11,864 nt of DNA from positions 1-11,864 of the forward strand of contig JBEULP010000094.1 of the NCBI GenBank assembly GCA_041287245.1, in the 5' to 3' direction. A program made the position numbers and the translations under genes. The notes beneath the pieces were generated by a model that was not told the origin of the DNA, did no database searches, and saw only the letters and a list, made by a program, of their open reading frames with translations. Shown in pieces: positions 556 through 11,394 of this stretch. The DNA is from Infirmifilum sp. Lineage in GTDB: Archaea > Thermoproteota > Thermoprotei > Thermofilales > Thermofilaceae. Position 1 is the stretch's first letter. Every line of letters starts with the position of its first letter.

Positions 556-915
556 TTGGGACTCCCAACAACTCGCCGCCTCATCGAAACCCCCCGCTTC
601 CCAGCCGAACTCGTCAACAAGGCTTCAGCAAAGGAGAAAGGCGGTGGCGGGAGACCCGAGCCTTGGGAAATGGTCTTCTGGTGGACTAGAAAGCCTCTCG
701 CAAGTGCGAGAGCAGTGCTGGCAGCAGCAGCACTACCCGCCGACTCAGATGTAGGTATGTTCACCAAGAACCTGCTTAGAGTGCGCACCAACGTGAAGGG
801 TGAAGTAGAGAATGTCCCACACCGCGAAAACCCAGCCCCACCCCTCCGAGAGGTTGCCACGGTTTTAAAAACTCGACGTGGTAAAGAGGCGGATAGTCGC
901 GCAGGAAAGATTTGA
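556..915 (+). pseudogene. Truncated DUF1156-family DNA methyltransferase (N-terminal fragment only)
   Basis: RRLIE..FP..LVNKASAKEKGGGGRP..WEMVFWWTRKPLASARAVLAAAALP is the DUF1156 N-terminal signature. The ORF stops at 119 aa, before any SAM-binding (DPxxGxG) or DPPY motif, whereas intact members are about 900-1000 aa. Confidence 0.8.
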
Positions 916-1000: not shown

Positions 1001-1021
1001 GATAATTAATTTTTAACTTGG

Positions 1022-1474
1022 GTACGGAAACTGTTAATCTTAAGTCTCTCACATGAGCGCAATCCAGATCCACACTCGCTACCGGTTATCAAGCACTACA
1101 ATGGTGTATTTTACAGAATGGTTCGCAAGCACTATGATGAGCTGAAAAAGAAGAATGTTGACGTGTTCATAATCGCAGAGGATCTCCGCATAATAGCTCC
1201 TGACACTACGCCTCCATATAGGCCACCAATAGGGAAGAGTTGGAGAAACTTTCTACCCAAAGGCAAGGAGCTGGGTACTGTTAAAGCCCTAAGGGAACAT
1301 ATACTTTCAATGATTAAAGAGAGAAAATGTAATGAGATTTTTGTCGCACTGAACAAGCATTTTCAGACCCTATTACCAGATCTAATCACTTGTTCTTGCA
1401 AGATGCTATCTAATTTTAGCGGAATAGGTTCTATGGTTCAGGCATTAAAGTTGCGGCTATCGGAGTGTGGGTGA
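1022..1474 (+). CDS. DUF6884/YaaA-like protein, possibly degenerate (track ORF 1118-1474 extends upstream in frame)
   Basis: The frame is open from 1010. Upstream of ATG 1118 it reads VRKLLILSLSHERNPDPHSLPVIKHYNGVFYR-MVRK...NVDVFII...II.PD...PY, matching the recalled DUF6884 pattern (LLILSCS.RK....PA.ERY.G..FR..RK...DV.I.S...G.I....I..Y). There is no in-frame ATG/GTG/TTG before 1118. Confidence 0.5.
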   Translation, partial: VRKLLILSLSHERNPDPHSLPVIKHYNGVFYRMVRKHYDELKKKNVDVFIIAEDLRIIAPDTTPPYRPPIGKSWRNFLPKGKELGTVKALREHILSMIKERKCNEIFVALNKHFQTLLPDLITCSCKMLSNFSGIGSMVQALKLRLSECG

Positions 1475-1478
1475 AGCT

Positions 1479-4400
1479 ATGATGAACAAATCTTCTCGTC
1501 GTATGATAGAAGAAACCCTGCCTCTTAAAGAAGTGAATTTAGATTCATTGTTTGAGTCAAGCTTCAGGGGTATGGGTATTCCTAAAGAGAGTAGAACTGA
1601 ATACTACAGGGCATTCGGAGTAAAACCAATGATTGCTGGTCCTAAGTTAAGAAATATACATGTATGGTTTGCTAGGAGGCCTCCATCTCCAGCACGCATT
1701 CTCACACTAGCCGCATTACTTCCGTCAAAACTAGATGCTAACATAGAATTAATAAAAAAAGCCGTTGGCTTTGAAAATTTAAGAAAATCAGCGAGAGAAC
1801 TCGGCGGATCCTTACTTATTTATGCAAGTCCGGACAGATATGTGATAAATGAATTATTTAAAAAACATCTTGGCCGTGAACCCAAAGAGTTTGTAGTAGT
1901 GGATCCAATGGCTGGCGGTGGCAGCATCCCCCTAGAGTCTTTAAGACTCGGCTTCACTACTGTAGCCGTCGAGTATAACCCGGTTGCCTACCTCATTTTA
2001 AAGGCTGCGGTGGAGTTTCCAGCTAAGTACGCTGATGCTGGTCTCTTCGAGGAGACTCTGAGGGTGGCCGAGAAGTTCATAGCAGAGGCTCGTCAAGAGC
2101 TTGGAAAGTACTACGGTGAAGGTTCTAATAGGTACATTTTTGCTCGTGGCATCAGATGCCCATTCTGTCACGGCCTTATACCTGTACAGGGAGTCGCTCC
2201 TCAAATAACGAGAAAAGAAACTTTCAAGAAGAGATTCCTGCGAATCGAGTTCGATAGGCAGAGGAAAACATTCACTGCTGAGACGACAGATGACCCGCCT
2301 CCCAAGCCCCTTGAAAAAAGGGGTAATAACATTAGGTGTCCCTACTGCGGTAGATGGTTCCAGCTACAAGGCAAGGCAAGGACAGGCCAGACAGCATTCG
2401 ATAAGTGGTTCCTGGATCACGCCACTCTAATGAGAAGCGTTGTTGAGGAGCTAGAGCAAATCACTCCCGAAATGGAGGAGAGACTCCTCGAGCTACATAT
2501 CCCACTAGTAAAGCAGCTCAAGAAAGGCTTTGCAGCCATTTGGGGCGATAAAAACGAGGAGGGCGTTTTCCTCCGAGCTTTTAGAGATCTTGCTGCTGAG
2601 ACGCTAGAGCTACAAGATTACATAGCACTTGACAAGATACCGGGCGAGAATAGATGGGCGAGCACAGCGAGGAACAAGGGTCTCACGCATTGGTACATGC
2701 TCTTTAATCCCAGGCAGCTCTTAGCCGTGGCGAAACTCTCGAAACTTGTTGCTCAGACTGCTGAGAGGCTTACATCGAGGGAAGGCGAGTTCGGAGCGGC
2801 GGTAGCGCTGTACCTAGCACTCGCTATCGATAAAATAGCTGATTATAACACTATTGCAACGGCGTGGCATGGTACAAGAGGGGTTATAAGAAATACGATT
2901 AGGGGTGAGAGTAGCATAGATTTCAGGCAGGAGTATGCTGAAGCGGTCTGTCCAGGACATGCCCTTGAATGGGCTCTTGAAACTGAGGTTGCCAAAGCTG
3001 GTAAGTATACGAGGACAGCTGGTGGTATTCTGCCGGTATTAAGGTTCCTTTGCCAAGAGTTTCGTGGGGCTGGTCTCGGTGATAGGATCTCCATTTACAT
3101 GGGAGATGCTACTAGGCTCTCAGAGATGCTGGGAGCTGGTGCCGTTGACGTGGTGAATGTGGATCCCCCATACTTTGACCAGGTTATCTATAGCGACAGG
3201 AGCGAGTTCTTCTGGATGATTCTACGCAGGGCACTGGCTCCTGTGCTTGAGATTCTCTTTAAACCTGGGCTGAGGCTATCAGGCTGGAGTTGGACGAGCC
3301 CTACGGTGCCCCGTGAGCGCGAGATCGTTGCGCGTGATGAGAAGGATACCAACGGCGGTTTCAGGAAACTCCTCAAGGAGTTCGTGAGGGAGACGTACAA
3401 AGTCTTGAAGGATGACGGCGTCCTTGTGCTCTGGTTTACGCACCCGAGGGATCTTGCATGGAGGACGGTTGGAGAGGCTCTATATGACGCAGGGTACGTG
3501 GTCTCTAAGGTGTGGCCTATCAAGACCGAGATGCCAACTCGCTACAAGCAGCAGGTTAACCTCGTTGCCCAGCAGACAAGCCTCGTGATCGTGGCGAGGA
3601 AGTACGCGAGGTCGAGGCTGATCGAGGTCGGGTTAGATATGAAGCGCGGCCTCCTGAACCACCCGCTTTTTGTCCGAGCTGCTGAAGAGGCTGTGGAGGA
3701 TGCCCGCCGGGTCTCGCGGGAGGCAGGAGCCAGCCCAGCCGATATGATGACTTTGATGCTGGGTAGTGCCTTGTCTGTGGCGACACGCTTCGAGGTTCCG
3801 CGGCCTGGAGGCTTCGACAGCCTATTCGACGCTGCCGCGACGAAGGTGAGCGAGTTGTTTGTCGCGCCCCTGCTTCGTCGAGTCCTAGTGGAGGTGGGGC
3901 TGGTGAAGCTCTTAGATGCTGAAGCGGAAAGGGTTTTGGATAATGTACGAAGGGCTATGCTGCGCGATGCCGCTGCGAGGTCGTATGTCATTCTCTGGTT
4001 CCTTTCAAGGGTGGATCTGCAGTCTGGCAAGCCGAGGGAGCCTCTCCTCCTGCTGAGCTATGACTTTGCGCAGACGGTGGCTAAGTTGCTTGGGTATGAT
4101 ATTGACAATCTACTGGGAAGGGGTTTAGTAGACATGGTCGCGGTTAAGGAGGTATCAAGTGTCGAGCCCGAAGAGGGAGGAGGGCGGAAAAGCGGGAAAG
4201 CATTTGTTCCATTGATGTTCGAGGCTTTGAGCGCGGCCAAGGCACGGACGACATGGTCGGTTCTCTCAACGCTGTTGCCAGGTAGGGCCCTGTATCTTGC
4301 TTACTTGGCTCTTCACGAGTCAGGTGCCCCTAGAGTGAGGGCGAGGGGTATACGGGAAAAAGTGCTTGCTTGGACTGACGAAGAAGTTGCGGAGGCCGCA

Positions 4401-4577
4401 TCCCTATCGGTGGTACTGCTGGAGACCGCCCGTGACAAGGACTTGGGATTTAAGACGGCGCCAGCTGGTAGCCTCGATGCTTACCTCTCGGGCTCTCTTA
4501 ATGCCTCAGAGGCCCAGACAGCTAGGGAGTTGGCTGTGCGTGCACTGCTCTACCTGACGGGTGGGGTGACTTTATGA
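1479..4577 (+). CDS. DUF1156/COG1743-type Zn-ribbon amino (likely N6-adenine) DNA methyltransferase
   Basis: DUF1156 motif IHVWFARRP; SAM-binding motif I VVDPMAGGGSIPLE (D at 1902); CPFC (2157-2168) and CPYC (2337-2348) Zn ribbon; LFNPRQL; catalytic motif IV NVDPPY (DPPY 3162-3173). GGTGA RBS at 1470-1474 favours ATG 1479/1482 over GTG 1467. Confidence 0.92.
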   Translation: MMNKSSRRMIEETLPLKEVNLDSLFESSFRGMGIPKESRTEYYRAFGVKPMIAGPKLRNIHVWFARRPPSPARILTLAALLPSKLDANIELIKKAVGFENLRKSARELGGSLLIYASPDRYVINELFKKHLGREPKEFVVVDPMAGGGSIPLESLRLGFTTVAVEYNPVAYLILKAAVEFPAKYADAGLFEETLRVAEKFIAEARQELGKYYGEGSNRYIFARGIRCPFCHGLIPVQGVAPQITRKETFKKRFLRIEFDRQRKTFTAETTDDPPPKPLEKRGNNIRCPYCGRWFQLQGKARTGQTAFDKWFLDHATLMRSVVEELEQITPEMEERLLELHIPLVKQLKKGFAAIWGDKNEEGVFLRAFRDLAAETLELQDYIALDKIPGENRWASTARNKGLTHWYMLFNPRQLLAVAKLSKLVAQTAERLTSREGEFGAAVALYLALAIDKIADYNTIATAWHGTRGVIRNTIRGESSIDFRQEYAEAVCPGHALEWALETEVAKAGKYTRTAGGILPVLRFLCQEFRGAGLGDRISIYMGDATRLSEMLGAGAVDVVNVDPPYFDQVIYSDRSEFFWMILRRALAPVLEILFKPGLRLSGWSWTSPTVPREREIVARDEKDTNGGFRKLLKEFVRETYKVLKDDGVLVLWFTHPRDLAWRTVGEALYDAGYVVSKVWPIKTEMPTRYKQQVNLVAQQTSLVIVARKYARSRLIEVGLDMKRGLLNHPLFVRAAEEAVEDARRVSREAGASPADMMTLMLGSALSVATRFEVPRPGGFDSLFDAAATKVSELFVAPLLRRVLVEVGLVKLLDAEAERVLDNVRRAMLRDAAARSYVILWFLSRVDLQSGKPREPLLLLSYDFAQTVAKLLGYDIDNLLGRGLVDMVAVKEVSSVEPEEGGGRKSGKAFVPLMFEALSAAKARTTWSVLSTLLPGRALYLAYLALHESGAPRVRARGIREKVLAWTDEEVAEAASLSVVLLETARDKDLGFKTAPAGSLDAYLSGSLNASEAQTARELAVRALLYLTGGVTL

Positions 4578-7500
4578 AGCCGGTCGGCGAGCTTTTCAGG
4601 TCTAAGGTTTCCTTAGAGGAATTAAAGGAGGAGCTTGTCCCAAGCTTCGACGCTGTGCTGGAAGCGTGGATGAGCGGACCCAAGAGAACCAAGTTCTCGG
4701 ATCCCGACTATGTGCTTGAGATCACATACGTGACGCCACCACTGAAACTCTTCGTTGAAAGGGTCGCGGAGCGGTTAAGGATTCCAAACGTGGTAGGAGT
4801 TCCGCTAGAGAGAGGGTTCGGTTTCGGCAAGACGCATTCTCTCATTTATCTCTGGCACCTTTTCACCTCGGATGCCTACAGAAAAGCGGGCATCACAATT
4901 CCCGAGGACTTGGTTCAAGAGACTCTGGTCTTGGGCATGGACTTCAGCGCAGATCACCCCTTTGCAAGGCTTGTACAGGAGTTGGAGTTCTATGCTAAGT
5001 TCCCAAAGGAGCTGTCAGGTATCAAGGATGTGAATCTTCTCCGAGCTGTTTTAAATACATTCAATATGTTTGAGAAAAGCGAGAATCTAGCCGATCCCGA
5101 GAGTCTGGCAAAGTTCATATCAAAGGTGCTTGAAGAGTATGAGCGCCTCGGCGGCAAACCCAAGCTACTTCTGCTCATGGATGAGCTTGGCTTAGACCTT
5201 GCGAGGAAGTTGAGGGAGTACGCAGATAAAAAGGATGATAAGATCTACACTCTCGCCAATAAGCCCTTGAACTTCCTCAGCTACCTTTACAGTAAATTGC
5301 AGGTAAAGAAGTTTGCAGGCGTAGTCATCTGGGCCCTCGCGGAGCAGGATAAGAGGGAGATAGAGGCCCTAGCTATGAAGTACGTCGATGACGAGAAACT
5401 ATCCAAAAAGATCGAGGGTGTCATAAAAGACCTGGACACCATATCTGAGCGCTACTCGAGGGGTCTCGGTGGGACAAGCATTGCCGAGTTATCTTATAGC
5501 CCAGAGTACGCACTGGATATTGCTAGGCGTAGGTTGCTCAAGGTTGCTCCTGGTGTGAGTCTCGAAAACTTACAGGCTGAGTACGTGCACTGGCTGGAGG
5601 CGCTTGCGAAGCAGCTGAATTTGAGCGAGGCATTCTTTAAATACAGAGAGGAGCTCAAACGATTCTACCCGTTCTCCCTTGGGTTGATCAACTTGCTGAA
5701 GAAGCTAATGAGCAGCCGCGATGCCCCCCGTACAGAGTTTGTGCGAACGGTTTTACAGGTTGCCTGCGAGGCTACCGAAAACGCGTTAAGGAAGGATCCT
5801 GAAGGGGCTTACGCTCTGAGCGTAAAGCACCTCAGCATGGGTAGCGTGGTGCAGGCTAAGCTCGTGACCCCCTTCGAGGAAGATTGGGTAAGGGTGGCCA
5901 TGGAAGTCGAGGACGCCGTTGGAAAGCAGGAGCAGGAGATGAAGGTTGTCGCGGAGTTGGTGGCGAAGTACATTCTCGCTAAGGGCATTACCGCAGATGT
6001 GCTGACTCTTCTAGAGTCGAAAGAAAAGAGAGATGTAGAGAGATATGGTTCCACGCTGGAGGAAATACAGCTCGAGGTGCTAACTTCGATGAAGGGGGAT
6101 GAGGCGCTAGTGGCCATCGAGAGATTGGGTAACGCCTTGGAAATCCTGCGCTCCGAGAGCGCGAGGATTGATGAGCGGGAAGTAGAGAGTGCAAAATTTT
6201 ACGTACCCTCTCTCGTCAGGACAGTTTTCAACAAGCTAGCTGTGTACATCTTAGAGGAGAGGAAGAACGTTGAGAAAGAGGAGCTGATTCCCGTCTACCT
6301 CGTGCAAAGAGGGACTTTACAATCCCTCTTCACAAACCTATCGCTGGTGATCGGTGGTAGGAGTAACGTGAATGTGAGTCTTACGGAGTACCGTAAGCTC
6401 GTAAACTTGAACCTTCTACTCTCGGATGAAAGCTTTCGCGACGCGCAGAACAGGGGAAACCTGCTGTTGGTGCTAGTTCCGCCTTGGGATGCGGCGCTCT
6501 TCTTTTCACTGCGCCAGGGTGAAAGCTACGATACTGTGGTTAACAGGGTTGTCCGGGAGCTGCAGGCTGCGTTACAAGAGGGTAGGGTTAAGAAACCCCT
6601 CCACCTCGTAGTGCTCGTTCCGAATCTCTCTGTTACAAATATGAAGAGACTCCTGAGTAAACTGGTGGAGTATGAAGGTACGAAGAGGTTCATCAACTAC
6701 TTGGCGAAAAAGGAGGAGATAATCAACGAGAGGTTGAAGGAGTACGAAGCCACACTGGTGAAGAGGGGGGATCTTATAGAGTTCTTGAGAGGCGATGATG
6801 CCAAGAGGGTTCAGCGCAACTTGCGGACGAGGCTAGAAAGCGAGATCGTGGAAGCGAGAAACTACGCTCAACAGCGTCTAGTACGACTATCCAGGGAGAT
6901 AGTCAAGAGTGTTCTGGAGCTGTACGAGAAGGTTGTGTATTACAGTCTCGATGAAAAGTCATTTACCGCTAAGCATGTATCGTCCATTCAGCGTCCTGAA
7001 GAGGCGATAGAGGCAAAGGATCTCTCGAGTTACGCGGCTACGGTCAACGAATTTCTCAAAGAAATCGTGAACCAATTAGGGTACAAATCGGACGTTGTGC
7101 AAGTAGCAAGAGCTGTTCTTGATGCCTATCGGGAGGAGATGAGTAGGGGAGTCATTAGGGAGTTCGACAGGTTTGAGGAAGTGAGCGAGAATATCATGCT
7201 AGGAACATTCGGCGTTAAGCCCCTCAGCCTGGCTGTAGCGCGGGAGGCTCTGCTCAGACTCAACAACGAGGATATCGAGCTCGAGGATAAAACTGTGAAG
7301 ATTCTCGTGAACGAGAGTGAAGGGGTCATCCGTTTCTCGGCGACTCCAAAGAGAGCGGAAGTGGCTCCCACGTTTGTCGAGGAGCAAGTGATGCCCACCG
7401 TTATACCTCGCGAGGTTCCTGTGAAGCAAACTGCCGAAGTACTTGAGAAAGTGGTCGTCTCAGAGCTTCCGCCTGGCTTCGATGTGCAGGATCTGTCTTT

Positions 7501-7786
7501 GAAGCTCGGTAGGTTTCTCGACAGTGGCGAGGTGGAGACACTCGAATTTGTTCTAGAGGGAGATCTTGTTAAAATCAACTTGATTCTACGGAGTCCTACG
7601 AAGGATCTGTGGAACGAGTATAAGTCTGTTGTGAACATGTTAAGGTTGATCTCTGAGAAGGCGAAGAAGCCTGTCACCCTTGAATTGAGTCTTAAGTCGC
7701 CGAAACCTCTCTCAGAGCTACGCGAAATACTCGGAGACTATGTAAAGCAGAGAAGAAGCCCCATAGACCGCCTCCTCCCAGCGTAG
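4574..7786 (+). CDS. DUF499/COG1483-family large P-loop ATPase (BrxC/PglY-related)
   Basis: 1070 aa. N-terminal DPDYVLEITYVT; Walker A RGFGFGKTHSLIYLWH (4811 onward; DUF499-type FGxGKTH); Walker B LLLLMDE; RFYPFS (YPF motif). ATGA overlap with the MTase stop and a GGGGTGA RBS upstream. Confidence 0.85.
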   Translation: MKPVGELFRSKVSLEELKEELVPSFDAVLEAWMSGPKRTKFSDPDYVLEITYVTPPLKLFVERVAERLRIPNVVGVPLERGFGFGKTHSLIYLWHLFTSDAYRKAGITIPEDLVQETLVLGMDFSADHPFARLVQELEFYAKFPKELSGIKDVNLLRAVLNTFNMFEKSENLADPESLAKFISKVLEEYERLGGKPKLLLLMDELGLDLARKLREYADKKDDKIYTLANKPLNFLSYLYSKLQVKKFAGVVIWALAEQDKREIEALAMKYVDDEKLSKKIEGVIKDLDTISERYSRGLGGTSIAELSYSPEYALDIARRRLLKVAPGVSLENLQAEYVHWLEALAKQLNLSEAFFKYREELKRFYPFSLGLINLLKKLMSSRDAPRTEFVRTVLQVACEATENALRKDPEGAYALSVKHLSMGSVVQAKLVTPFEEDWVRVAMEVEDAVGKQEQEMKVVAELVAKYILAKGITADVLTLLESKEKRDVERYGSTLEEIQLEVLTSMKGDEALVAIERLGNALEILRSESARIDEREVESAKFYVPSLVRTVFNKLAVYILEERKNVEKEELIPVYLVQRGTLQSLFTNLSLVIGGRSNVNVSLTEYRKLVNLNLLLSDESFRDAQNRGNLLLVLVPPWDAALFFSLRQGESYDTVVNRVVRELQAALQEGRVKKPLHLVVLVPNLSVTNMKRLLSKLVEYEGTKRFINYLAKKEEIINERLKEYEATLVKRGDLIEFLRGDDAKRVQRNLRTRLESEIVEARNYAQQRLVRLSREIVKSVLELYEKVVYYSLDEKSFTAKHVSSIQRPEEAIEAKDLSSYAATVNEFLKEIVNQLGYKSDVVQVARAVLDAYREEMSRGVIREFDRFEEVSENIMLGTFGVKPLSLAVAREALLRLNNEDIELEDKTVKILVNESEGVIRFSATPKRAEVAPTFVEEQVMPTVIPREVPVKQTAEVLEKVVVSELPPGFDVQDLSLKLGRFLDSGEVETLEFVLEGDLVKINLILRSPTKDLWNEYKSVVNMLRLISEKAKKPVTLELSLKSPKPLSELREILGDYVKQRRSPIDRLLPA

Positions 7787-7787
7787 C

Positions 7788-9224
7788 TTGGTGAACATTT
7801 TGTCCAGCCTAGATGAGAAAGTCGTAAGAGTCTTTGGCGATGTGGCAGTAGATAAGAGGTTAGCTAGGCTCGACGTTGTCTCAAGGTTGCCTAGATTCAT
7901 TTCGGAATACTTGATCACATATTATCAGAGGGACGGGTCGCCTGATTGGCAGGATAGGCTTGCCAAGGTTGTCAATGAGTGGTACCCAGACCCCAAGGAG
8001 CGGGATAGAGTTCTTAACAGGGCTAAGCAAGAGGGTAAAGTAGTGCTGCTAGACGAGTTCAAGGTCTCCGTGGACTTAAAGAGAAATGCCTACTTCCTCC
8101 ACGTACCTAACTTGCAGATTTATGATGCACTAGTGAAGGAGTCTCTCGTACAAAAGTACGAGAGACTCCTAGGAGGCCTATGGGGTGTGGGAATATTGAG
8201 GTATGTGCCAGAGCTGGCCAAAACGGTTCTTACGCGGAATAAAGACAAGCTGTCTTTCACACCCCTACTGCTTGAGGATTTAAAGCCCTTCCAGGTCTAC
8301 TCCATAGATGTGAAGCACTTCATCGATGCTCGATACAAGTTTTCAATGTGGGAGTGGGTTGACCTTCTCGTCAAAAGCATCGGCCTCAACCCTAAGGTGT
8401 ACAGCTCTAGGCAGAAACTGCTGTTGCTTATCAGGCTCGCGCCCCTAGTCGAAGGGAACGTAAACTTGCTCGAGCTCGGGCCCAGAGCAACCGGCAAGAC
8501 ATATCTCTACAGGAACATCTCTTACTACACTCGAATCTACGCAGGAGGCAAGGTGAGTCCTGCGATGCTCTTTTACAATATGAACCTGAAGACTCTCGGC
8601 GATATCGGGACACGAGATGCCGTTGTCTTCGATGAGGTGGCGAGGATAGAGTTCTCTGATCAGGAGGTTGTTGCTAAGCTGAAGGACTATATGGTCGATG
8701 GGTTCTTCGAGAGAGGTACTCTCAAGAGAGCGCACAGTGACTGCTCCTTAGTCTTCATGGGGAATGTAGAGCTTGGTGGCCAGAGTATCCTCGGAAGCGT
8801 CCAGGACTACTTACCGAATTTTATGAAGGATACTGCGTTCCTTGACAGGGTGCATGGCTTGCTTCCAGGTTGGGAGTTACCCAAGATTATGAAGAGCGAT
8901 ATCCACCTCGCCACCGGTTATGGTCTTGCGGCAGACTACCTATCAGAGGTCATCCATAGAATGCGTGTACAGAGCTATATGCCGGTTGTGGAGGAGTCCG
9001 TTCAGCTTGAGAGCAACTACTCGATAAGAGACGAGATTGGGGTTAAGAAGCTGCTCGCAGGTATGCTCAAGCTGCTCTTCCCTCATAGAGAATTCGACAA
9101 GAGCGAGCTCGAGCCGGTGGTAAGCCTCGCGGTGGAGCTTCGGCAGTATATCGCTGACATCCTGACAGCATTGTCACCTGCGGAGTTTACACCGAAGAAG
9201 TTGAGCTGGTCGATAACAGCATGA
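7788..9224 (+). CDS. brxL: BREX BrxL-like AAA+ protein, short form lacking the C-terminal Lon protease-like domain
   Basis: LPRFISEYL, EWVDLLVKSIGLNP, KLLLLIRLAPLVEGNVNLLELGPRATGKTY (Walker A at 8478), VVFDEV (Walker B), LKDYMVDGFFERG, DTAFLDRVHGLLPGWELPK, GLAADYLSE and IRDE are all BrxL/COG4930 hallmarks. The protein ends at 478 aa. Start is TTG 7788 or GTG 7791. Confidence 0.92.
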   Translation: MVNILSSLDEKVVRVFGDVAVDKRLARLDVVSRLPRFISEYLITYYQRDGSPDWQDRLAKVVNEWYPDPKERDRVLNRAKQEGKVVLLDEFKVSVDLKRNAYFLHVPNLQIYDALVKESLVQKYERLLGGLWGVGILRYVPELAKTVLTRNKDKLSFTPLLLEDLKPFQVYSIDVKHFIDARYKFSMWEWVDLLVKSIGLNPKVYSSRQKLLLLIRLAPLVEGNVNLLELGPRATGKTYLYRNISYYTRIYAGGKVSPAMLFYNMNLKTLGDIGTRDAVVFDEVARIEFSDQEVVAKLKDYMVDGFFERGTLKRAHSDCSLVFMGNVELGGQSILGSVQDYLPNFMKDTAFLDRVHGLLPGWELPKIMKSDIHLATGYGLAADYLSEVIHRMRVQSYMPVVEESVQLESNYSIRDEIGVKKLLAGMLKLLFPHREFDKSELEPVVSLAVELRQYIADILTALSPAEFTPKKLSWSITA

Positions 9225-10051
9225 AAGCTTGGTATCTCAAGTTTGAAGAGATTCAAAAAGAAGTTGAAACACTCTTAAGGAGGAACGACATTCGCAAGGT
9301 GTATAATGCCGTTCTATTCGCAGCCATTTACGCAGCACTCCTGAAGCGGAAAGTTAGCTACGAGCACCTTAGTTCTCTCGCGGAAACTATCCCACCGCAT
9401 TTGCTAGGGGAGGCTAAAGGAAAGTTGCACAGGCACTTTCTCGATTTGATTAGCGTCCTAGAGGAAGCTCTTCGATCTAGGAAGCCTGTGATTGTGGATG
9501 GCGAAGCAAATCTACAGGTAGTACTGGGCTGGTTGAAGAAAGAGATTGGCAGCGTGGATTACGTAGTTCTTTACGACTGTCTATCGCCGATCGAGCTCTT
9601 GGTGATTTCCTCCTACCTTCTAAAGAGCGGATTCTATGCAAAGCCTCTTGGGAGAGTCTTCATCAACCCCGTTGGCCTCACCCGCTTTGTCACAAGCCAG
9701 CTTAGCGAGCAAGAGCATCCTCGAACCTTGCACATGGTGGCCCAGCATATAGCTCGGGAGCTGGGAGCTAGGGGTGCTGACGTGAACCCTTTAGTCGATA
9801 GAATTGTTCATGAAAGTGGCTTAAAAGGGATCAAAGAATTCGCGGATACTCTTAATATCGAAGAGATCGCCAGGGAGGTGTTCAGCGCGGCCAAAAAAGG
9901 AAGGCTTTTGCTAGGCTCTGACCACGGCTATGACCTTGTTCTCACTCCCGACAGGGACATCGTTGTAACACATGGATTTAAATTAAGAGATGAAAGTTCC
10001 ATATTGTTACCTCTAAGTAGGCTGGCAGTATATTCAGTATTTTGGAGGTGA
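9221..10051 (+). CDS. pglZ: Minimal PglZ-like alkaline-phosphatase-superfamily phosphodiesterase
   Basis: VVLYDCLS (D119), NPVGLT (T154, candidate nucleophile), VDRIVH (D193/H197), LLLGSDHGY (D234/H235) and VTHG (H251), in the order expected for the PglZ/AP two-metal site. ATGA overlap with brxL. Confidence 0.75.
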   Translation: MKAWYLKFEEIQKEVETLLRRNDIRKVYNAVLFAAIYAALLKRKVSYEHLSSLAETIPPHLLGEAKGKLHRHFLDLISVLEEALRSRKPVIVDGEANLQVVLGWLKKEIGSVDYVVLYDCLSPIELLVISSYLLKSGFYAKPLGRVFINPVGLTRFVTSQLSEQEHPRTLHMVAQHIARELGARGADVNPLVDRIVHESGLKGIKEFADTLNIEEIAREVFSAAKKGRLLLGSDHGYDLVLTPDRDIVVTHGFKLRDESSILLPLSRLAVYSVFWR

Positions 10052-10056
10052 GTAGC

Positions 10057-10575
10057 ATGAGTACTGAAGGAAAACATGTTTATTACATCTCACTGCTTCG
10101 CAGGAAGAGTACGTGGGAGATCCTCTACAATATCGGTGGCGAGGGAAAGGATATGACCGTTCTCAGGCTGAACGGTAAACACGCCGATAAAATCTTCAGG
10201 GATCTCGTTAGAGTCTTAGCCAGGCAAGGTGCGGTGACTCCTGTCAGGGTGTCGGACAGGGAGGAAGTATACGCGATGCGCGACGACGTAGGACCCGTGG
10301 TAGGCGGCTTCTTAATCCTATTCAGGAAGAGTGGTAGCTTTAGGGGGTGGGGTGCTATCCTCGACGAACTATTCGATAGGGGGTATATAGGCCTAGCTAA
10401 GGCGTTCATAAGCTTCCTCGAGCTAGCAATGGATCTTTCTAGAGCGATGCCCAAGAAAGGCAGAGGATACACTCTCTCGCCCGTGGTCTTAGACGCTCTA
10501 GCACCTGCAGCGAGATGCTTCATCAAAAGATTATCGCAAACTTATAAGCGCTCCGAAGAAGAGACCCAACGGTAG
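10057..10575 (+). CDS. Hypothetical protein (172 aa), last gene of the operon; possible DUF3780-like accessory subunit
   Basis: Strong GGAGGTGA RBS (10044-10051, overlapping the pglZ stop) 5 nt before ATG 10057. Codon style matches the operon. The family guess rests only on position and a loose YAMRDDVGPVVGGFLILFR pattern. Confidence 0.75.
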   Translation: MSTEGKHVYYISLLRRKSTWEILYNIGGEGKDMTVLRLNGKHADKIFRDLVRVLARQGAVTPVRVSDREEVYAMRDDVGPVVGGFLILFRKSGSFRGWGAILDELFDRGYIGLAKAFISFLELAMDLSRAMPKKGRGYTLSPVVLDALAPAARCFIKRLSQTYKRSEEETQR

Positions 10576-10710
10576 AGGTAGCGAAAGTGCCCTAAGTTGC
10601 TTGCCCCGCACTAGCCGAGAGGCGGGCGACCAAAAGCGATCGAAGTCATCGAGGGGGAGCGAGAGTAAGACTCGTAGAGATACTCATATCAATAGCACCA
10701 CCACAACTAG

Positions 10711-11394
10711 AGAAAGCATACAGAGTTTGTTGAGGCGCAGATAAAGGTTCTTGAGGAAAGGATAAGGGATCTTGAGTCACGTATGCCCGAGGAAGAGAGA
10801 AGGCGTGTGGAGAGGCTTGCCTCCCTAGCTGGGGAAGTCAAGGCGTTAAGGGAGTACTTAGCAGGCATTAACAGAAGGATCGAAGCTCTAGGTGATGTGG
10901 GACAGGAACTGGCAGCCGTGGACAAGGAGCTAGGGGAGGTCACCAAGAAGCGTGAGGAGATTGAAAGAAAGATTTACGATCTGAGGAGGAGCGTTGCAAT
11001 GGAGTTCCGCAGGATAGCAAATGAGCTCGTGAGGACACTAGGATTCACGTGGTTTAAAGCTATATCCCTCGATGAATACGGCGGCACATACTCCGTCAGA
11101 ATAATTAGAGCGTTGCCAAGTGGTAGAGAGGAGAAGCAGAACCTCAGGCAACTGAGCACTAGTGAAAGAATCGTTGTAGCATTAATAGCTATACTAACAG
11201 GACTAAAGCCCGGTATAACTAAGGATTACCAGCCCGAAAAAGTGCTGATCTTGGCTGATGAAGCGTTACTAGCATTAGACCCCGAGAGGTATGAGAAGGT
11301 AAAGGACGAGCTAAGGAAATATGGAAAGTATATTGTTGTAACGAAGCTAGCTGAGCCCACAAAGACACCAACACTAACAATATTACACGAGTAG
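10711..11394 (+). pseudogene. 5'-truncated archaeal SMC/Rad50-related ABC ATPase (coiled coil plus C-terminal head half)
   Basis: The coiled coil runs in frame from 10711 (RKHTEFVEAQIKVLEERIRDLESR-MPEEERRR...), directly after TAG 10708-10710. Signature QLSTSER, Walker B/D-loop LILADEALLALD, terminal strand IVVTKL. No Walker A half is seen in the window. Confidence 0.75.

Follow-up and report, generated by a model that had tools for sequence, protein, structure and literature searches.

A conserved archaeal BREX-related operon: a probable helicase-free, restriction-modification-like defence

We analysed a window of 11,864 nucleotides (nt) from Infirmifilum sp. (positions 1 to 11,864 of contig JBEULP010000094.1, assembly GCA_041287245.1, family Thermofilaceae) and found that it carries at 1479..10575 a conserved archaeal BREX-related operon that, by analogy, probably acts as a helicase-free restriction-modification-like defence. 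The operon encodes a methylase, a large ATPase, a short BrxL, a mini-PglZ (ORF4) and a small basic protein (ORF5). It joins a DUF1156/DUF499-type module to BrxL and mini-PglZ, without PglX, BrxA, BrxB or a helicase, as a sequence-only reading of this DNA had described. Compared with the defined system models, it fully matched no PADLOC system. It is a real, conserved and apparently uncatalogued variant of the BREX-related (BR) systems.

The gene order is conserved across genomes. Metagenome relatives were retrieved with an alignment of five ATPases from BrxL-bearing loci, so that the fractions given here describe this clade and not all BR systems; a metagenome scan with a single ATPase query retrieved no relatives. 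We recovered 66 loci (43 ATPase clusters at 90% identity). BrxL came next after the ATPase in 44 of the 51 loci whose downstream DNA reaches 400 nt or more, and BrxL, PglZ and ORF5 were all present in 36 of the 39 informative loci, those in which 2900 nt or more follow the ATPase (22 ATPase clusters, 90% identity); the remaining three presented PglZ and ORF5 but no BrxL. Twenty loci had all five genes complete, with spacings mostly from -8 to +19 nt, and four genome loci (L001, L003, L043, L044) kept the same order. Dozens of loci with ATPases 30-56% identical to that of the window show the same order and compact spacing, so the arrangement reflects more than chance. Named relatives belong to Thermoprotei, Sulfolobales and other Thermoproteota metagenome-assembled genomes, which, with the hot-spring origin of the DNA, suggests that the host is a thermophilic crenarchaeon.

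The operon is patchily distributed. Mini-PglZ matched strongly (E<1e-19) in 4/120 genomes of the class, host included, and in 0/7 other genomes of the genus, and ORF5 in 0/6 other genomes of the genus. Nuclease genes, GmrSD, Mrr and HNH among others, are neighbours of the loci (32 of the 48 neighbour representatives were scanned), and the operon neighbourhood held no further conserved gene beyond those reported here. None of the 122 candidate stretches from viral contigs was a relative. A Snf2 gene was present in 2/66 loci (L177, L178), on the opposite strand, many contigs being short-flanked.

ORF4 (9221..10051, + strand, 276 amino acids, aa) is, as judged from its predicted structure, a standalone PglZ with intact metal ligands. 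The AlphaFold2 model (predicted local distance difference test, pLDDT, 85.6) displays a helical N-terminus and an alkaline-phosphatase-superfamily core, and its best Foldseek matches were PorX (E 4e-5) and the BREX PglZ chain 9zn5_B (E 1e-3). At the sequence level, it had no match in Pfam, PADLOC or a third hidden Markov model (HMM) library, and phmmer against the PDB was also empty. Seven residues (D119, T154, D193, H197, D234, H235 and H251) show no variation across 27 sequences of 25-44% identity, namely the window copy and one from each of 26 clusters. From the alkaline-phosphatase-superfamily pattern, we take them to be a two-metal site plus nucleophile. This reading also draws on the equivalence to PorX T272/H500, since BREX PglZ is described as a metal-dependent nicking nuclease that needs the Thr and His equivalent to these two (PMC12205998).

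The methylase (1479..4577, + strand; ORF start 1467/1479; 1032 aa from ATG 1479) is a DUF1156-type N6-adenine DNA methyltransferase by its matches and motifs. It matched PADLOC HmaB (E 1e-36), the DUF1156 anti-phage model NF042963 (E 9e-29, under the model cut-off) and, weakly, Pfam DUF1156 (E 0.003); the PADLOC match to PglXI was weak (2e-8, 88 aa) against that to HmaB. It contains DPMAGGGS at 142, DPPY at 562 and CxxC at 227 and 287, with two zinc-ribbon motifs. Among 35 full-length copies, motif I is preserved in 34 and DPPY in all.

The next gene (4574..7786, + strand, 1070 aa) encodes a large AAA+ ATPase, remotely DUF499/HmaC/BrxC-like, with GFGFGKT at 81 and LLLLMDE at 198; Walker A is retained in 49 of 50 copies. 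The label "DUF499 ATPase" given to it before is loose. Remote homology supports it, through PADLOC HmaC (E 1e-5; 2/5 alignment members match) and a Pfam DUF499 protein (hhalign 77.8%, E 1.9e-5 over 335 columns), but the Pfam scan gave no DUF499 match. In a FastTree phylogeny, the ATPase sits on a long branch from Pfam DUF499 proteins.

Two hypervariable loops of the methylase (2862..2963, + strand; aa ~462-474 and ~487-495), flanking a conserved RGESxxDFRxEY stretch, are predicted from sequence to be exchangeable cassettes setting the recognised DNA sequence. Loop types were defined by the analyst after inspecting the alignment; from 36 full-length methylases, 35 were parsed and 34 typed for both loops. 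There are three and four recurring types, and all 12 combinations are present among the 34 typed copies. On the backbone tree, the types need 17 and 20 changes, against shuffled-label means of 17.8 and 20.2, and across the 383 variable backbone columns the median is 5 and the maximum 15. Thus, loop types fit the tree no better than shuffled labels, which suggests specificity switching. Ten methylase pairs with at least 85% backbone identity carry different loop types, and five pairs under 65% identity have an identical loop A. Shared loops have 4-9 of 15 codons identical at the DNA level, against a background of ~40%; this low codon identity points to long-standing alleles maintained by selection, not to recent transfer between distant lineages. 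Five close pairs were profiled; their differences peaked at or beside the loops, inside wider mosaic tracts. In the MANTIS system, exchanging aa 445-527 of the methylase MtsC, a region between motif I and DPPY, switched specificity (10.64898/2026.09.23.753747). The loops described here also lie between motif I and DPPY, a likeness to MtsC in position only.

The short BrxL (7788/7791..9224, + strand, 477-478 aa) presents an N-terminal domain and an MCM-like AAA+ domain, with no Lon-like or HKD tail. It matched TIGR02688 with 449.7 bits (cut-off 329.3), PF13337 and PF20442, and contains GPRATGKT at 230, VFDE at 279 and AFLDR at 349; Walker A and B are preserved in 37/37 copies. BrxL is known as an ATP-dependent, DNA-binding, MCM-like protein (PMC10164562).

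We placed the ATPases in a FastTree phylogeny of 36 selected sequences (14 BrxL-bearing metagenome loci, six of the seven BrxL-less ones, genome loci and five DUF499 references). BrxL-bearing ATPases formed one clade (support 0.98) nested among BrxL-less cassettes, with one apparent loss (L140). This topology suggests that BrxL was gained once, onto a BrxL-less cassette. Two outer BrxL-less lineages (L081/L208 and L083) are preceded by a DEAD/DEAH-type SF2 helicase with no Pfam SNF2 match; the other BrxL-less lineages presented no upstream helicase in the available flanking DNA.

A quick tree of BrxL (39 rows) separated the operon-type proteins from two other groups. The first group pairs with Eco57I-like enzymes: a two-gene unit, in which a ~1230-aa protein is directly followed by BrxL, recurs in many Thermoproteota (L034-L042, L045, L046, L055; host contig C66), and in the single copy that was scanned the partner is an Eco57I-like type IIG restriction-modification enzyme. 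The second is an archaeal lineage (Bathyarchaeota; L057:976-3812, L059:3460-6083) with the order BrxL, PglZ-like protein and true DUF7680. This order was seen in 2/201 genomes, with a BrxL from another clade. Both contigs end upstream, a class-wide search found no longer contig, and the protein upstream of this BrxL was not identifiable as a DUF499-like ATPase. Besides, BrxL is present in 6/6 other genomes of the host genus, mostly solo amid housekeeping genes (L047-L052, L054; host contig C29). As this solo BrxL nests inside the operon-type clade, it may be a domesticated defence ATPase.

ORF5 (10057..10575, + strand; ORF start 10042/10057; 172 aa from ATG 10057) is a small basic alpha+beta protein, with an isoelectric point of 9.2-10.1 across 42 copies and 55 relatives at 50% clustering. 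Its model (pLDDT 76.5) has five strands and five helices arranged as an antiparallel sheet plus helices. Foldseek against the PDB gave no match at E<=0.001 and no P-loop match, and the direct HMM libraries had no match for ORF5, including none to DUF3780 for ORF5 or its relatives. DUF3780 was detected in 0/151 genomes and in none of the controls either, which makes this absence uninformative.

We suggest, on three weak lines of evidence, that ORF5 is probably a remote relative of DUF7680. This family was its top Atlas structural match (template modelling score, TM, 0.48), and sub-threshold Pfam DUF7680 matches fell in the same region in 4/17 and 2/40 proteins. By hhalign, a broad ORF5 profile gave 1.2, 35.8 and 78.7% (best E 1.7e-5) and a narrow one 0.2, 1.0 and 6.1%; controls, run on the middle DUF7680 template alone, gave 0.1-0.3%. 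Single-sequence comparisons with DUF7680 members were negative. In helicase-bearing, Type-2-like plasmid BR loci, DUF7680 genes lie between the DUF499-type ATPase and DUF1156 genes (4/4 scanned), the slot held by DUF3780 (MtsB) in MANTIS, from which we reason that ORF5 could have an MtsB-like role. DUF3780 is described as having five helices and an antiparallel sheet of four strands (PMC12839542).

More widely, DUF7680 or tblastn relatives provide the small gene that adjoins the DUF499-type ATPase in plasmid BR loci of haloarchaea, cyanobacteria and alphaproteobacteria (L195, L196, L198-L204); the four scanned loci matched no PADLOC model. ORF5 relatives are also present in 11/12 genomes of one family (f23; L108-L120), mostly solo and several of them convergent with a family B DNA polymerase, and these are possibly domesticated.

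The proposed five-gene operon proved incomplete: its five genes are real, but a sixth upstream gene (1010..1474, + strand) had been overlooked. A gene of ~150 aa lies directly 5' of the methylase in 23 of the 30 loci where the methylase is full-length and the upstream DNA reaches 500 nt or more, and the open frame of the window is its homologue. We describe it as DUF6884/YaaA-like. There is no direct Pfam match; one homologue (L126) has ESM features 0.91-0.92 to DUF6884-bearing clusters, and its hhalign score was 84.7% against two DUF6884 members and 1.5% against one member alone. DUF6884 is reported to be YaaA-like, with predicted DNA binding and a link to DNA lesions (PMC11701544). The window frame has no in-frame start in its first 36 codons (the first in-frame ATG is at 1118, and TTG 1018 is one base off frame), and it retains 16/20 otherwise invariant columns, where other copies have 20 of 20-22. 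With no early start and four invariant residues lost, the window copy is probably decaying.

The closest known system is Type-3 BR, which comprises a DUF1156 methylase, a DUF499 ATPase, a Swi2/Snf2 helicase, a standalone PglZ and iSTAND, a BrxB-like inactive P-loop protein present in 82% of Type-3 BR taxa (Rakesh & Krishnan 2026, PMC12839542). The operon shares the DUF1156 N6-methylase with two zinc fingers, a remotely DUF499-like ATPase, a standalone PglZ with intact metal ligands, the lack of a classical restriction nuclease and the archaea-rich distribution. Compared with Pfam DUF499 proteins, its ATPase is homologous to them and yet falls outside Pfam DUF499. Unlike Type-3 BR, it has no BrxHII-like Swi2/Snf2 helicase (none in the window, and among the relatives only the two opposite-strand genes) and no iSTAND, and it adds BrxL, ORF5 and the DUF6884-like gene. 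ORF5 was considered as an iSTAND candidate and rejected on its fold, in which helices accompany an antiparallel sheet and no P-loop was matched, and the upstream gene is DUF6884-like. The operon likely works like Type-3 BR; lacking the helicase and iSTAND, it does not qualify as a member.

Other systems share fewer parts. With MANTIS (Gao_RL, Type-2 BR), it has in common the ATPase, an alpha-class DUF1156 methylase, a small basic co-factor and a variable target-recognition region (10.64898/2026.09.23.753747), but it lacks the PLD/HKD helicase-nuclease MtsD and has PglZ and BrxL. ORF5 is a candidate counterpart of DUF3780 (MtsB), with no DUF3780 HMM match and a remote likeness to DUF7680, which fills this slot in the four plasmid loci scanned. 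Hma (Type-1 BR) gave the best PADLOC matches, HmaB and HmaC, but its helicase-nuclease HmaA is absent, and PglZ, BrxL and two small genes are present. With BREX types 1 and 4, the operon shares PglZ, a large AAA+ ATPase and BrxL, tail-less as in type 4; it differs from type 1 by the lack of PglX/BrxX, BrxA and BrxB (PADLOC), from type 4 by the lack of a PAPS reductase (BrxP) in the window or among conserved neighbours, and from both by a PglZ of ~276 instead of ~860 aa. Separately, host contigs C28, C50, C76 and C100 (L067, L209, L068, L210) contain pieces of a classical Hma/Type-1 BR system, apparently in two versions: a DUF1156 methylase, a Pfam DUF499 ATPase, a Snf2-NOV_C helicase and a metallo-beta-lactamase gene.

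The suggestion that the architecture may be new stands in part. In its favour are the lost helicase and iSTAND, the gained BrxL and the two small genes, but PglZ, DUF499 and DUF1156 together are already Type-3 BR (PMC12839542). The main text of that paper assigns BrxL specifically to BREX types 1 and 4, and none of the passages considered ties BrxL to a BR system; its supplementary locus lists may include such loci. We found no publication whose title or abstract describes the arrangement, and no paper on DUF7680.

Gene content, order, motifs, the PglZ-like predicted fold, the absence of a helicase from the cassette and the loop polymorphism were read directly, and we infer every activity from the MANTIS, BREX PglZ and BrxL literature. 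In MANTIS, MtsA and MtsB load the methylase MtsC on DNA (10.64898/2026.09.23.753747). Likewise, the AAA+ ATPase, aided by ORF5, would load the methylase on DNA, and the methylase would hemimethylate adenine in a short asymmetric site chosen by its two swappable loops. At unmethylated invader sites, the same complex would recruit mini-PglZ, whose two-metal site would nick or cut. BrxL, a later gain outside the minimal core, would form an ATP-dependent ring on double-stranded DNA that strengthens restriction or blocks replication, and the DUF6884-like protein would be an optional DNA-binding accessory.

The defence reading draws on the conserved order, the kept catalytic residues, the patchy distribution, the nuclease neighbours and the loops decoupled from the backbone tree. 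Alternatively, BrxL could be the main effector, clamping unmethylated invader DNA and blocking replication, with PglZ as a signalling-oligonucleotide phosphodiesterase or assembly factor that cuts little DNA. PorX, the best structural match of PglZ, is an oligonucleotide phosphodiesterase, BrxL is kept in most informative loci and also occurs in this phylum next to Eco57I-like type IIG enzymes, and in type 1 BREX restriction is lost in BrxL ATPase mutants (PMC10164562). However, sister lineages keep intact methylase, ATPase, PglZ and ORF5 with neither BrxL nor helicase; a BrxL-free core thus persists, with PglZ as its sole candidate effector, and we consider a BrxL-centred mechanism unlikely. 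Slightly less likely still, the operon could be a degenerate Type-3 BR whose Snf2 helicase is supplied by another locus, or could serve for modification alone and protect a mobile island. The host has DUF499 and Snf2 helicase genes on C50 and a second helicase copy on C100, a Snf2 helicase adjoins L178, and gene remnants flank the operon in the window; yet Snf2 is rare and oppositely oriented among the relatives, the PglZ ligands are invariant in 27 diverse copies, and specificity-like diversification fits selection by invaders better than passive marking. We regard it as very improbable that the operon serves DNA metabolism instead of defence, for instance by controlling replication or by repair on a mobile element. 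BrxL is MCM-like, the ATPase ORC/Cdc6-like and DUF6884 YaaA-like and tied to DNA lesions (PMC11701544), and solo ORF5 relatives adjoin a family B DNA polymerase, but patchy distribution, nuclease neighbours and shuffled methylase loops speak for defence, as do the closest tested relatives (MANTIS, Hma and BREX), all of them defence systems.

Several observations weigh against a helicase-free defence system with PglZ as effector. Its defence function is argued from sequence and analogy. The Foldseek TM-scores of PglZ were only 0.34-0.45, 5/66 loci have a split gene, and the host genome has Snf2 helicases on other contigs that could act in trans. The ORF5-DUF7680 link varies with the profile pair (0.2-78.7% over six comparisons), no ORF5 family member reaches the Pfam DUF7680 cut-off, and the kinship of DUF7680 with DUF3780 (MtsB) is taken from gene position only. 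Since most ORF5 relatives in family f23 and most BrxL copies in the host genus (6/6 genomes) are solo, both proteins can have non-defence roles. Finally, the loop types are post hoc and matched to the MtsC region by position, not alignment, and convergence may explain their sharing.

Tentatively, and with less than even expectation, we propose that the operon represents a fourth subtype of BR, belonging to thermophilic archaea and having PglZ as effector and no helicase, with BrxL replacing the helicase motor, ORF5/DUF7680 as an MtsB-like co-activator and specificity set combinatorially by two short methylase loops, and with a second archaeal lineage perhaps coupling BrxL, PglZ and DUF7680 independently. 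If so, it would be the smallest reconstitutable model of PglZ and BrxL restriction, with a readable recognition code. PglZ nicking was shown only recently. The operon combines a MANTIS-kind methylase-ATPase module with a 276-aa PglZ and a tail-less BrxL, a small and likely thermostable protein set. Sister cassettes with and without BrxL offer a natural control for the separate contributions of PglZ and BrxL, and comparison of natural alleles could test the simple specificity code that the swappable loops predict.

At the locus level, all five + strand reading frames are intact in the ORF listing of the window, and the catalytic motifs of methylase, ATPase, BrxL and PglZ are intact as well, as the sequence-only reading had stated. 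Reading the junctions confirmed its five co-oriented, coupled genes. ATGA overlaps lie at 4574 (methylase/ATPase) and 9221 (BrxL/PglZ); the ATPase stop TAG at 7786 is followed by the BrxL start, TTG 7788 or GTG 7791; and GGAGGTGA at 10044-10051, the ribosome-binding site before ORF5, includes the PglZ stop codon. The GGTGA ribosome-binding site of the methylase is overlapped by the stop of the upstream DUF6884-like frame. The window is a complete contig, and its GC content is 50%, like that of the host genome. Its sequence was recovered in three DNA runs, all hot-spring metagenomes of a single study, and contigs from two of the three, which may stem from the source sample, were free of indels across the five genes and at the start of the DUF6884-like gene.

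Upstream, a TATA-like TTTATAA at 990-996 (within 983-1022), ~25 nt 5' of the expected start of the DUF6884-like gene, is a possible leaderless promoter of the operon. At 556-915 (+ strand) lies the N-terminal remnant of a second DUF1156 methylase (Pfam E 9e-12). We rejected it as a piece of the operon methylase, as it belongs to a different DUF1156 subfamily (37% over 27 aa to the intact methylase), and it suggests earlier cassette turnover at the site. Downstream, contigs of two runs have a joint skipping 10549-10746, whose short side is just 29 letters, and 10783-11394 (+ strand) encodes a C-terminal fragment of an SMC-related protein specific to archaea (NF045487, E 2e-35).

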